Origin: Escherichia coli
Lineage (GTDB): Bacteria > Pseudomonadota > Gammaproteobacteria > Enterobacterales > Enterobacteriaceae
DNA length: 64,000 bases
NCBI RefSeq assembly: GCF_017348835.2
Contig: NZ_CP071375.1
Strand: one strand, 5' to 3'
Part shown: positions 4,292 to 50,161 of the stretch, piece by piece
Position numbering within the stretch: position 1 is the stretch's first letter
Layout: each line of letters begins with the position of its first letter
The notes under the pieces: generated by a model
The model's input: only the letters and a program-made list of their open reading frames with translations
Databases searched by the model: none
Told to the model about the DNA's origin: nothing
Program-made: the position numbers and the translations under genes

Positions 4292-5791
4292 ATGCTACAT
4301 TTGTTTGCTGGCCTGGATTTGCATACCGGGCTGTTATTATTGCTTGCACTGGCTTTTGTGCTGTTCTACGAAGCCATCAATGGTTTCCATGACACAGCCA
4401 ACGCCGTGGCAACCGTTATCTATACCCGCGCGATGCGTTCTCAGCTCGCCGTGGTTATGGCAGCGGTGTTCAACTTTTTGGGTGTTTTGCTGGGTGGTCT
4501 GAGTGTTGCCTATGCCATTGTGCATATGCTGCCGACGGATCTGCTGCTTAATATGGGATCGTCTCATGGCCTTGCCATGGTGTTCTCTATGTTGCTGGCG
4601 GCGATTATCTGGAACCTGGGTACCTGGTACTTTGGTTTGCCTGCATCCAGCTCTCATACGCTGATTGGCGCGATCATCGGGATTGGTTTAACCAATGCGT
4701 TGATGACCGGGACGTCAGTGGTGGATGCACTCAATATCCCGAAAGTATTAAGTATTTTCGGTTCTCTGATCGTTTCCCCTATTGTCGGCCTGGTGTTTGC
4801 TGGCGGTCTGATTTTCTTGCTGCGTCGCTACTGGAGCGGCACCAAGAAACGCGCCCGTATCCACCTGACCCCAGCGGAGCGTGAAAAGAAAGACGGCAAG
4901 AAAAAGCCGCCGTTCTGGACGCGTATCGCGCTGATCCTTTCCGCTATCGGCGTGGCGTTTTCGCACGGCGCGAACGATGGTCAGAAAGGCATTGGTCTGG
5001 TTATGTTGGTATTGATTGGTGTCGCACCAGCAGGCTTCGTGGTGAACATGAATGCCACTGGCTACGAAATCACCCGTACCCGTGATGCCATCAACAACGT
5101 CGAAGCTTACTTTGAGCAGCATCCTGCGCTGCTGAAACAAGCTACCGGTGCTGATCAGTTAGTACCGGCTCCGGAAGCTGGCGCAACGCAACCTGCGGAG
5201 TTCCATTGCCATCCGTCGAATACCATTAACGCGCTCAACCGCCTGAAAGGCATGTTGACTACCGATGTGGAAAGCTACGACAAGCTGTCGCTTGATCAAC
5301 GTAGCCAGATGCGCCGCATTATGCTGTGCGTTTCTGACACCATCGACAAAGTGGTGAAATTGCCTGGCGTAAATGCTGACGATCAGCGTCTGTTGAAGAA
5401 ACTGAAGTCCGATATGCTAAGTACCATCGAGTATGCTCCGGTGTGGATCATCATGGCGGTCGCGTTGGCGTTAGGTATCGGTACGATGATTGGCTGGCGT
5501 CGTGTGGCAACGACTATCGGTGAGAAAATCGGTAAGAAAGGCATGACCTACGCTCAGGGGATGTCTGCCCAGATGACGGCGGCAGTGTCTATCGGCCTGG
5601 CGAGTTATACCGGGATGCCGGTTTCCACTACTCACGTACTCTCCTCTTCTGTCGCGGGGACAATGGTGGTAGATGGTGGCGGCTTACAGCGTAAAACCGT
5701 GACCAGCATTCTGATGGCCTGGGTGTTTACCCTTCCGGCTGCGGTACTGCTTTCCGGCGGGCTGTACTGGCTCTCCTTGCAGTTCCTGTAA
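4292..5791 (+). CDS. pitA: low-affinity inorganic phosphate transporter PitA
   Basis: 499-aa polytopic membrane ORF; sequence and synteny match PitA. Confidence 0.9.
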
Positions 5792-5850
5792 TCGTACGCA
5801 CCAAAACGAGCGGGTCAGCTGGCCCGCTTCAGATTGTTGACATAGTGCGC

Positions 5851-5957
5851 TTTGTTCATGCCGGATGCGGCGTGAACGCCTTATCCGGCCTACAAAAACA
5901 TGCAAATTCAATAGATTGCAGAGATTATGTAGGCCTGATAAGCGTAGCGCATCAGGC
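5851..5957. repeat. REP/BIME palindromic units between pitA and uspB
   Basis: gccggatgcggcgtgaacgccttatccggcctac and gtaggcctgataagcgtagcgcatcaggc, typical E. coli REP sequences. Confidence 0.7.
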
Positions 5958-5983
5958 AATTTTGCGTTTGCAATCAGTCTCGA

Positions 5984-6011
5984 GCGGGTCAGTTTACTGG
6001 CCCGCTTTTTT
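5984..6011 (+). terminator. rho-independent terminator (gcgggtcag...ctggcccgc + T-tract)
   Basis: GC-rich hairpin followed by tttttt; a near-identical hairpin lacking the T-tract lies at 5808-5825. Confidence 0.55.
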
Positions 6012-6034: not shown

Positions 6035-6370
6035 TTAATGCCAAATCATCAATGCAATCAGGCTGACCACCACCAGACCACACAATGCGCTGGTCAGAAT
6101 AAACTGCCGACGCACCCGCTCACAGCGGCGAATAAATTCATCATCGTGATGATCGCGATAACGTTGGGCATAGATATACCAAACGAGACGCACCTGTTTG
6201 TTGGGTTGGCCATGTGAGGTAAAAAAGCCCCCTCCATCAACATATTGATAGAGCAATGGATCGCAGTTACGCAGTACCACTAACAACGCGCGTAGTGATG
6301 AGAAATAGCGCGCCATGTTAACAATGCAAACGACACATAAAGCCCAAAATAATGCGACGGTGCTTATCAT
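6035..6370 (-). CDS. uspB: universal stress protein B
   Basis: 111-aa [26 protein letters not shown]...; divergent from uspA. Confidence 0.9.
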
Positions 6371-16730: not shown

Positions 16731-16778
16731 AGCGGCTATATCCCCCCCACAGGTTGTTAGAAAAGTGCGCTTTATTTA

Positions 16779-16880
16779 TGTCGGATGCGACGCTGGCGCG
16801 TCTTATCCGACCTACAAGGTTATGAAAATTCGATGAATTGTATGTTATTTGTAGGCCTGACAGGCGTAGCGCATCAGGCG
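16779..16880. repeat. REP/BIME palindromic units downstream of arsC
   Basis: tgtcggatgcgacgctggcgcgtcttatccgacctaca and tgtaggcctgacaggcgtagcgcatcaggcg. Confidence 0.7.
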
Positions 16881-17356
16881 ATTTTGCTATTTACACATTA
16901 CTCCCTGCGTGAGATTCCAATTATCGCGTCCAGCATGGTGTATCAGTGATCTGCTTAGTGATCAGCGATACAGTGCAGCAGTTTAAAGACGTACTGGATT
17001 ATGATTTATCAGTGCTTTACACAACAAATTATTCAATAATTATAAGATACCTTAACCCATTTTATTATTACACATCTAAAACATCACAAAAATATCATTT
17101 CACACACTATCGGAGAACATCATAACTTTTTAAAATGAGCGCTTTTTGATAGTTGTTAACGTTTTCTTTTACGATACTATCAATGCCCTTTTTTATACAC
17201 AAATATTACCGGGTGGAGATAAAAGGGAAGTCAAAGGTAATTATATCAGGAAGATATGACGCATGATATTTATTGTGCGTAGAAGAAAATCCATTCCTGC
17301 TCTAATTATCCAATTTAAAAATCTTAGCATAAAACAGATAATGAATAAGGAATGTT

Positions 17357-48657: not shown

Positions 48658-49980
48658 ATGCAAGCAACAGCCACAACACTCGACCACGAGCAAGAATACA
48701 CGCCGATCAACTCGCGTAATAAAGTCCTTGTCGCCTCTCTCATTGGCACGGCCATTGAGTTCTTCGACTTTTACATTTACGCCACTGCGGCCGTTATTGT
48801 GTTTCCGCATATCTTCTTCCCGCAGGGCGATCCTACGGCAGCAACGCTACAGTCGCTCGCCACCTTCGCCATCGCCTTCGTCGCGCGCCCCATTGGCTCT
48901 GCCGTATTTGGTCATTTTGGCGATCGCGTTGGGCGTAAAGCGACGCTGGTCGCCTCGTTGCTAACGATGGGGATTTCGACCGTGGTGATTGGTCTGCTGC
49001 CGGGCTATGCCACGATTGGTATTTTCGCCCCGCTGCTGCTGGCGCTGGCTCGATTTGGTCAGGGTCTGGGCTTAGGCGGTGAATGGGGCGGCGCGGCGCT
49101 GCTGGCGACTGAAAACGCCCCACCGCGCAAACGTGCACTGTATGGCTCCTTCCCACAGCTGGGCGCACCGATTGGCTTCTTCTTTGCCAACGGCACTTTC
49201 TTGCTGCTTTCCTGGCTACTGACCGATGAGCAGTTTATGAGCTGGGGCTGGCGTGTGCCATTTATCTTCTCGGCGGTGCTGGTCATTATCGGCCTGTATG
49301 TTCGCGTGTCGCTGCATGAGTCGCCGGTGTTTGAGAAAGTCGCTAAAGCGAAAAAACAGGTGAAGATCCCGCTGGGTACGCTGCTGACCAAACATGTTCG
49401 CGTAACCGTACTGGGTACGTTCATTATGCTGGCAACCTATACGCTGTTTTACATCATGACGGTCTACTCTATGACCTTCAGTACCGCCGCCGCGCCAGTT
49501 GGGCTTGGCCTGCCGCGTAACGAAGTGTTGTGGATGCTGATGATGGCAGTTATTGGTTTTGGCGTGATGGTGCCAGTCGCCGGATTACTGGCTGATGCCT
49601 TTGGTCGCCGTAAAAGCATGGTAATTATCACCACGCTGATCATTCTGTTCGCGCTGTTCGCCTTTAACCCGCTGCTCGGTTCTGGCAACCCGATTCTGGT
49701 TTTTGCCTTCCTGCTGCTGGGGTTAAGTCTGATGGGTCTGACCTTCGGGCCAATGGGTGCGCTGTTACCAGAGCTGTTTCCGACAGAAGTGCGTTACACC
49801 GGAGCATCGTTCTCTTACAACGTAGCGTCGATTCTCGGGGCTTCCGTTGCGCCGTATATCGCAGCCTGGTTGCAGACTAACTACGGGTTAGGTGCGGTGG
49901 GGTTATATCTGGCGGCGATGGCTGGCTTGACGTTAATCGCCCTGCTGCTGACCCATGAGACGCGACATCAGTCGTTGTAA
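48658..49980 (+). CDS. yhjE: MFS transporter YhjE
   Basis: 440-aa 12-TM MFS ORF. Confidence 0.85.
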   Translation: MQATATTLDHEQEYTPINSRNKVLVASLIGTAIEFFDFYIYATAAVIVFPHIFFPQGDPTAATLQSLATFAIAFVARPIGSAVFGHFGDRVGRKATLVASLLTMGISTVVIGLLPGYATIGIFAPLLLALARFGQGLGLGGEWGGAALLATENAPPRKRALYGSFPQLGAPIGFFFANGTFLLLSWLLTDEQFMSWGWRVPFIFSAVLVIIGLYVRVSLHESPVFEKVAKAKKQVKIPLGTLLTKHVRVTVLGTFIMLATYTLFYIMTVYSMTFSTAAAPVGLGLPRNEVLWMLMMAVIGFGVMVPVAGLLADAFGRRKSMVIITTLIILFALFAFNPLLGSGNPILVFAFLLLGLSLMGLTFGPMGALLPELFPTEVRYTGASFSYNVASILGASVAPYIAAWLQTNYGLGAVGLYLAAMAGLTLIALLLTHETRHQSL

Positions 49981-49993
49981 TAAGAGTGAAAAG

Positions 49994-50091
49994 CCTGATG
50001 CGCTACGTTTATCAGGCCTGAATTTCCATACAATATATTGAATTCGCAAGGATTTGTAGGCCGGATAAGGCGTTCACGCCGCATCCGGCAT
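49994..50091. repeat. REP/BIME palindromic units downstream of yhjE
   Basis: gcctgatgcgctacgtttatcaggcc ... gtaggccggataaggcgttcacgccgcatccggc. Confidence 0.65.
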
Positions 50092-50161
50092 GAACAAAGC
50101 ACACTTTGCCAACAATCTAAATCTGTTTAATTGCCGGATGTCAGACATCCGGCAATTATCA

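Follow-up and report, generated by a model that had tools for sequence, protein, structure and literature searches.

The convergent Escherichia coli genes pitA and uspB are separated by a BIME-1 element that was inserted at their shared terminator hairpin, leaving the complete stem-loop present on both sides. We studied the spacer in a window of 64,000 nt (the whole stretch of DNA that was analyzed, from E. coli contig NZ_CP071375.1), and our comparisons demonstrate an insertion with defined element ends and duplication of the whole stem-loop. The full account given here, including the cut-and-join step that the footprints suggest, is likely to be correct. The pitA-uspB locus itself is ordinary; the point of interest is a target duplication defined by structure. 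In the window, the spacer between the two convergent genes is 243 nt long and is organized as follows (features without a sign have no assigned strand).

4292-5791, + strand: pitA coding sequence, the upstream convergent gene (from the open reading frame list; annotated as pitA in matching genomes)
5803-5806, - strand: A-tract retained next to the left hairpin copy; read on the - strand, it forms the U-tract of the uspB terminator
5807-5829: hairpin copy 1, CGAGCGGGTCAGCTGGCCCGCTT, the left target-duplication copy, without the TTTA loop in this strain
5830-5980: BIME-1 (RIB/RIP) element, the inserted unit of 151 nt, from full-length paralogues; missing from the short allele
5830-5859: left flank motif and terminal inverted repeat, CAGATTGTTGACATAG..., 30 nt, from paralogue alignment and the inverted match to 5958-5980
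5860-5893, + strand: Y-type REP, GCCGGATGCGGCGTGAACGCCTTATCCGGCCTAC, from inverted repeats and paralogue alignment
5894-5928: L linker with an IHF-like site, 35 nt, kept in paralogues
5929-5957, - strand: Z1-type REP, GTAGGCCTGATAAGCGTAGCGCATCAGGC, inverted, from inverted repeats and paralogue alignment
5958-5980: right flank motif and terminal inverted repeat, ...TTTGCAATCAGTCT, 23 nt, from paralogue alignment; an inverted copy of the left flank
5981-6007: hairpin copy 2, CGAGCGGGTCAGTTTACTGGCCCGCTT, the right target-duplication copy, the same as the ancestral hairpin
6006-6011, + strand: T-tract (T6) kept by the right copy and overlapping its end; pitA transcript end
6035-6370, - strand: uspB coding sequence, the downstream convergent gene (from the open reading frame list)

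The two hairpins are laid out as CGAGCGGGTCAG|CTGGCCCGCTT in copy 1 and as CGAGCGGGTCAG-TTTA-CTGGCCCGCTT in copy 2. All 23 shared positions are identical, a G.T wobble included, so that the 4-nt loop TTTA is the sole difference, and the flanking CG...TT is common to both. Local alignment of the 40-nt flanks gave a score of 18, compared with a mean of 6.0 (standard deviation, 1.5) for mismatched flank pairs; the resemblance between the hairpins is therefore not a matter of chance. An initial annotation of this DNA had described two near-identical GC hairpins bracketing two REP units, and this description is borne out by the 23 of 23 identities and the Y and Z1 REPs between the copies. Its position for the distal hairpin (about 5981) was right, whereas the proximal hairpin, placed at about 5804, begins at 5807, with the A-tract occupying 5803-5806. 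As RNA on the + strand, both copies form stable folds (-15.8 kcal/mol for copy 1 and -19.6 kcal/mol for copy 2). Copy 2 has the features of an intrinsic terminator on the + strand (an 11-bp stem followed by U6), as does copy 1 on the - strand (a weaker stem followed by CGUUUU). No U-tract follows copy 1 on the + strand, where the next bases are CAGAUUGUUG, or copy 2 on the - strand, where they are CGAGACUG. The earlier remark that only the distal copy has a T-tract thus holds for the + strand and fails for the - strand, on which copy 1 is followed by CGUUUUGG, called a terminator-like site by our scan.

The sequence between the hairpins is a single BIME-1 unit lying between the stop codons of pitA and uspB. 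A search with the 151-nt block against 5,426 complete E. coli genomes returned full-length matches of 90 to 93% identity in strains that are empty at pitA-uspB, with full-length paralogues at uvrA-yjbR, fepA-entD, and satP-mog. The homology starts with CAGATTG and ends with CAGTCT in every aligned copy. These shared limits identify positions 5830-5980 as one complete repeat unit and place the hairpins outside it. One end of the element (AGATTGTTGACA...) is repeated in inverted form at the other (...TGTCATCAGTCT), the element is noncoding, and related sequences occur at dozens of places per genome. The Y REP and the inverted Z1 REP align base for base with three paralogues, and the REP feet are CCTAC at 5889-5893 and GTAGG at 5929-5933. 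We take the REPs at 5860-5893 and 5929-5957 to be of the Y and Z1 types. In the linker, a putative IHF site, ATTCAATAGATTG at 5906-5918, matches 12 of the 13 positions of WATCAANNNNTTR. As single-stranded DNA, the element folds into one long hairpin (-55.2 kcal/mol; z = -7.3). The Y/Z1 naming and the BIME-1 architecture are as described in PMC3333891. The feature table of NC_000913.3 lists no repeat features at pitA-uspB.

Part of the element is also recognized by RNA family models. The Rfam family ES036/CssrF matches the linker at 5896-5936 with 42 bits (gathering score, 37.6), meaning that this "sRNA" corresponds to the BIME-1 linker, and the Y REP (5854-5890) gives a subthreshold match to naRNA4. 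In practice, the ES036/CssrF and naRNA4 families represent fragments of a dispersed repeat. Two further BIME-1-like copies were observed in the window. The copy at 49993-50118 (- strand) is cut short at its right end, which adjoins a stop codon (gene at 48658-49980); a hairpin, TTGCCGGATGTCTGACATCCGGCAA, lies 10 nt from its left end. The copy at 16750-16887 (+ strand) is degenerate (77% identity) and has no flanking repeat.

The pitA-uspB spacer occurs as two alleles in E. coli. The long allele is present in 1,939 of 5,425 complete genomes, and about 3,480 genomes (approximately 64%) carry the short one; nearly all genomes without the long allele match in two pieces, over a span that is 173 to 174 nt shorter. 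The short allele reads CACCAAAA-CGAGCGGGTCAGTTTACTGGCCCGC-T7 (TTTTTTT) and consists of one hairpin with a TTTA loop between A4 and T7 tracts. Among loci around uspB from 80 species, a single A-tract, hairpin, and T-tract arrangement was found in about 75, including Escherichia whittamii and other Escherichia lineages. The single hairpin in these other enterobacterial species indicates that the single state is ancestral and the duplicated state derived. The initial annotation had put forward splitting or duplication of the pitA terminator by a REP/BIME insertion, a reading that the lack of any REP-less variant would have refuted. This proposal is supported, in that the whole hairpin was duplicated and a REP-less variant with one hairpin exists among E. 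coli genomes. A first refinement is that the ancestral hairpin was a bidirectional terminator common to pitA and uspB and did not belong to pitA alone; a second, taken up below, concerns the proximal copy.

Three genomes (VE-V11-M, BHUCD02, and 1919D3) retain TTTA in the left copy and so have a perfect 27-nt direct repeat; the left copy is without the loop in nearly all other carriers of the long allele. The long allele is also found in contig L165, which has cryptic-clade Escherichia flanks, with the same diagnostic variants (GACATAG and the GTCAGCTG junction), and a related genome (L008) has the short allele. The presence of the long allele in L165 implies that the insertion is old or was moved by recombination. 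In the left copy of L165 (L165:7760-8020), CTGAAT replaces TTTTCT at the loop and the first two right-arm bases, and the length is still 27 nt. The loop region of the left copy has been altered repeatedly, by deletion in E. coli and by replacement of six bases in L165. The resident BIME-1 also varies internally: in L216 and L219 (VE-V11-M and BHUCD02), a patch carries approximately 11 to 14 substitutions relative to K-12, with identical ends and flanks. Judged by sequence, this patch looks like gene conversion from another BIME-1 copy; the right-hand part of the VE-V11-M element, CTTACTTTTG, resembles the BIME-1 copy at rlmC-artJ.

Published transcript ends from K-12 show how the two copies are used. 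SMRT-Cappable-seq mapped a full-length pitA transcript spanning MG1655 3637611-3639360, whose end falls in the T-tract that follows copy 2 (Yan et al. 2018, PMC6131387); this places the pitA 3' end at the distal copy, 3639360. On the - strand, Term-seq reports a 3' end at MG1655 3639154 (scores, 130,524 and 25,150), equivalent to window position 5804 and to the third U downstream of copy 1 (Adams et al. 2021, PMC7815308). This strong end in the copy 1 U-tract indicates that copy 1 is no relic and now serves as the uspB terminator. The K-12 RNAs run through the BIME in both directions: that of pitA crosses copy 1 first and ends after copy 2, and that of uspB crosses copy 2 first and ends after copy 1. 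As each gene ends at its distal copy, the convergent transcripts overlap by about 207 nt in antisense across the BIME. At rlmC-artJ, too, the artJ 3' end on the - strand of K-12 (899644) lies past the BIME-1, after the distal hairpin copy. A separate - strand Term-seq end at MG1655 3639733 (window position approximately 6383; scores, 109,975 and 42,672) falls within the uspB leader, 13 nt upstream of the start codon.

To see how far this arrangement extends, we assembled 16 distinct loci with near-full-length BIME-1 from a metagenome scan by left-end pattern and 1.34 Mb of further sequence, a pattern-based sample rather than a full genome census. At nine of the 16, locus-specific direct repeats abut both element ends with flank alignment scores of at least 12, compared with 1.1% of mismatched flank pairs that reach this threshold. 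Each of the nine repeats is a stable, GC-rich, terminator-like hairpin of 18 to 27 nt that comprises a whole stem-loop, and repeat length follows the length of the local stem-loop. Four loci have no stable adjoining hairpin (fepA-entD, L116, L185, and a second, degenerate copy in L170); at three (L169, L162, and L182), a stable hairpin lies against one or both element ends with no clear direct repeat. Four loci could be compared with their empty alleles, and each has a single hairpin when empty. Besides pitA-uspB, these are the following.

uvrA-yjbR: occupied in 89 genomes (1.6%); single hairpin in the empty allele, AAGGCCGCTTTCAGAGCGGCCTT
satP-mog: occupied in 467 genomes (8.6%); single hairpin in the empty allele, ATCCCCCCGCTCGGGGGGAT plus T7
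rlmC-artJ: single hairpin in the empty allele, AAAAAGCCGCAGGTGCGGCTTT

The duplication covers the full stem with its closing A-T pairs in every confirmed case. Two loci that appeared one-sided, rlmC-artJ (L093 allele) and the L173/L194 locus (L194 allele), proved to reflect secondary deletion of one copy. For the L102 locus, whose contig comes from another species, no empty allele was found in E. coli. The idea that the element always has one orientation with respect to the T-tract fit the first six loci and was rejected when rlmC-artJ and L102 had the stronger tract on the opposite side. At satP-mog, the 7 to 9 nt just upstream of the left copy differ between the occupied allele in L089 (attaagc) and L214/L215 (gttttgaga). 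The attaagc of the occupied allele differs from all empty alleles seen, and it may reflect either a change made by the insertion event or import of the allele from another, divergent lineage.

The history that these observations show is as follows. Ancestrally, pitA and uspB had one bidirectional intrinsic terminator between them, in which an A-tract and a T-tract flanked a GC stem of 11 bp closed by a 4-nt loop. A 151-nt BIME-1 was then inserted at this shared hairpin in a single lineage of E. coli and left a complete stem-loop on each side (a 27-bp duplication). The A-tract stayed with the left copy and the T-tract with the right copy, so that the bidirectional terminator was resolved into two unidirectional terminators facing apart. 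Both mRNAs gained REP-containing 3' untranslated regions (UTRs) that overlap in antisense, and the TTTA loop of the left copy was lost later, in almost all carriers. The footprints suggest that integration may have proceeded by cutting and joining, with a strand break at each base of the target stem. The target may have been recognized as an extruded hairpin or cruciform, which would bring both break positions side by side, and gap filling would then copy the stem-loop to both sides. More tentatively, BIME-1 as a class may be a mobile element that integrates specifically at intrinsic-terminator hairpins and duplicates the entire stem-loop, with the extent of the duplication defined by structure and not by a fixed stagger.

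The candidate enzyme is the REP-associated Y1 (HUH) transposase; we know of no enzyme shown to cut at hairpin bases. The REP-associated transposase of E. coli cleaves single strands at C^T, like IS200/IS605, without target duplication (PMC3333891), so the duplication is not predicted by that biochemistry alone. We considered C^T junctions as evidence for this transposase and dropped them, as they are present at only 4 to 5 of 7 loci, near the chance expectation. Insertion into the hairpin loop was rejected since both copies are complete and the repeats are perfect over 27 nt in three genomes. Snap-back synthesis of copy 1 was likewise rejected, as the right arm keeps the wobble G and is not a perfect complement.

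Two alternatives would deny the insertion or reverse its direction. That the hairpins are unrelated or convergent look-alike terminators with a REP cluster between them by chance is exceedingly improbable. GC-rich terminator stems can indeed be similar, as the 1.1% of mismatched flank pairs scoring at least 12 shows, but identity here covers all 23 shared positions, the wobble and the flanks included (27 of 27 in three genomes), the BIME-less allele has exactly one copy, and the pattern recurs at eight other loci with different hairpin sequences. It is also very unlikely that the long allele is ancestral and that the short allele arose by deletion between the direct-repeat hairpins, through slipped mispairing or recombination across CGAGCGGGTCAG, with loss of one copy and the BIME. 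Deletion between the 12-nt left arms would recreate exactly the short allele seen, secondary loss of one hairpin copy is known at other BIME-1 loci, and the long allele also occurs in the cryptic-clade contig L165 and in L009. However, a single hairpin without BIME-1 is found in about 75 other species and in several Escherichia lineages, and the occupied allele is rare at uvrA-yjbR (1.6%) and satP-mog (8.6%). Recombination via the right arms would, moreover, leave a single hairpin without the loop, a mark of such excision that was found in none of 5,426 genomes. Outgroups thus largely refute this origin of the short allele, while reversion is possible in individual strains; occasional short alleles could be revertants.

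The remaining alternatives accept an insertion and differ in how it came about. In a replicative template switch, the nascent strand would copy the hairpin, then a BIME-1 located elsewhere or excised as a single strand, and then return upstream to copy the hairpin again. Hairpins and REPs stall polymerases (stall sites in PMC3333891), and self-folding of the element and of the target would return the 3' end to the stem base. The return junctions nevertheless lack microhomology (the element end GTCT(C) compared with AAAAC, GTTA, and TGAG before the stems), the element ends are base exact at unrelated loci, as expected of defined cleavage sites, and a snap-back copy is excluded by the G of the G.T wobble kept in the right arm of copy 1; we regard this route as unlikely. 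We give similarly little credence to two single-strand Y1 (HUH) insertions, one per strand and each immediately 3' of the hairpin of that strand, in which the top strand would read hairpin-element and the bottom strand element-hairpin; repair of the looped-out hairpins would yield hairpin-element-hairpin, and replication without repair would yield one-sided products. In favor of this route, the enzyme cleaves single-stranded DNA only, at C^T (PMC3333891). The stem/T-tract junction is C^T on the top strand at 4 to 5 of 7 loci, with a similar picture on the bottom strand; the inverted ends of the element read ...CA(G/A)TC^T on each strand; in Enterobacter sp. EA-1, a related IS200 immediately follows this hairpin; and one-sided loci exist. 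Against it, two coordinated events and large-loop repair are required, C^T is expected by chance about half the time at a junction of GC stem and T-tract, and both checkable one-sided loci are secondary deletions.

The element itself does not differ from the BIME-1/RIB/RIP elements of E. coli, of which it is a member and which were reportedly described by Gilson in 1991, Boccard and Prentki and Oppenheim in 1993, and Bachellier in 1997. The whole pitA-uspB element is present or absent among isolates, as has been noted for BIME-1 in PMC1187871 (citing Bachellier 1997) and PMC3333891. Duplication of the flanking host hairpin is a feature that we did not find described: the accessible literature contains no mention of hairpin duplication around BIME or REP sequences. 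As the older primary BIME papers lie outside that literature, we rate hairpin duplication as a general rule as only probably a new observation.

The element also resembles the REPINs of the REPIN/RAYT system, reportedly the work of Bertels and Rainey (in 2011), Nunvar (in 2010), and Ton-Hoang and Messing (both in 2012), in having two inverted REPs with GTAG/CTAC feet and a long single-strand hairpin. REPINs are thought to be mobilized in trans by a domesticated IS200-like Y1 transposase. IS200/IS605 transposition produces no target duplication, whereas the BIME-1 loci described here have an 18- to 27-bp duplication equal to the target stem-loop. To our knowledge, no transposition event has been captured for REP, BIME, or REPIN sequences, no target duplication has been attributed to their spread, and the role of the Y1 transposase is inferred. 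The mechanism of REPIN spread is given as unknown in PMC3333891.

Bacterial miniature elements (MITEs) such as Correia, ERIC, and RUP are likewise short, noncoding, multicopy, and variable among strains, with terminal inverted repeats and flanking direct repeats. MITE target duplications measure 2 to 9 bp, with a length set by the transposase. They are fixed and short, unlike those at the BIME-1 loci studied here, which lack this MITE signature and range from 18 to 27 bp with the target hairpin. IS1397 and ISKpn1, which target REP loops, and group IIC introns and IS200, which lie next to terminators, are similar in that an intergenic DNA stem-loop guides target choice. These elements duplicate 0 to 4 bp, whereas BIME-1 here duplicates the whole stem-loop. 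The short allele is the same as known bidirectional intrinsic terminators between convergent genes, with A-tract, GC hairpin, and T-tract serving both genes; the long allele differs in that the two directions are split onto copies 174 nt apart and transcripts end at the far copy. A 2011 review presents REPs as lacking MITE signatures (PMC3184786).

If insertion at terminators with stem-loop duplication holds in general, REP/BIME (REPIN) elements would have their first integration footprint, and the position of BIME-1 at the 3' ends of transcription units would be explained. A footprint that recurs in this way would place limits on the chemistry, with breaks falling at both bases of an extruded hairpin; it would also identify terminators as the target and offer a simple assay in which a cloned terminator serves as a trap. 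Each insertion into a bidirectional terminator would also rewire two convergent genes toward overlapping antisense 3' UTRs. At pitA-uspB and rlmC-artJ, one insertion has turned a compact bidirectional terminator into two one-way terminators and given both genes REP-containing, mutually antisense 3' UTRs. The roughly 36:64 split of E. coli strains at pitA-uspB could affect how stable the mRNAs of a phosphate transporter and of a stress gene are.

BIME-1 copies may also take part in later rearrangements. In a set of metagenome contigs (L169, L198, L209, L116, and L151), the right flank ccgatgctattaatcc... is joined via BIME-1 to three left flanks, and the left flank ...cgccaccgggtata is joined to two different right flanks. 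On sequence grounds, this reshuffling of flanks suggests recombination between BIME-1 copies.

The pitA-uspB spacer has acquired other sequences outside E. coli. In seven loci from Citrobacter, Salmonella arizonae/diarizonae, and others (L012, L013, L015, L018, L024, L028, and L040), REPs or REP pairs lie downstream of the pitA stop codon and ahead of the hairpin; these insertions are independent, involve genus-specific REP types, and did not duplicate the hairpin. In Enterobacter sp. EA-1 (L073), a frameshifted IS200-like element (Pfam Y1_Tnp; E = 2e-31) directly follows the conserved terminator hairpin, which is not duplicated, at the junction ...CCCGTTTT|CTTGTTCTAG.... The spacer reaches 626 to 1,003 nt in a group including Raoultella, Enterobacter, and Leclercia (L016, L025, L046, L059, L082, L023, and L080), where extra DNA past the terminator hairpin contains an open reading frame starting with MASVPxPGPGSIV....
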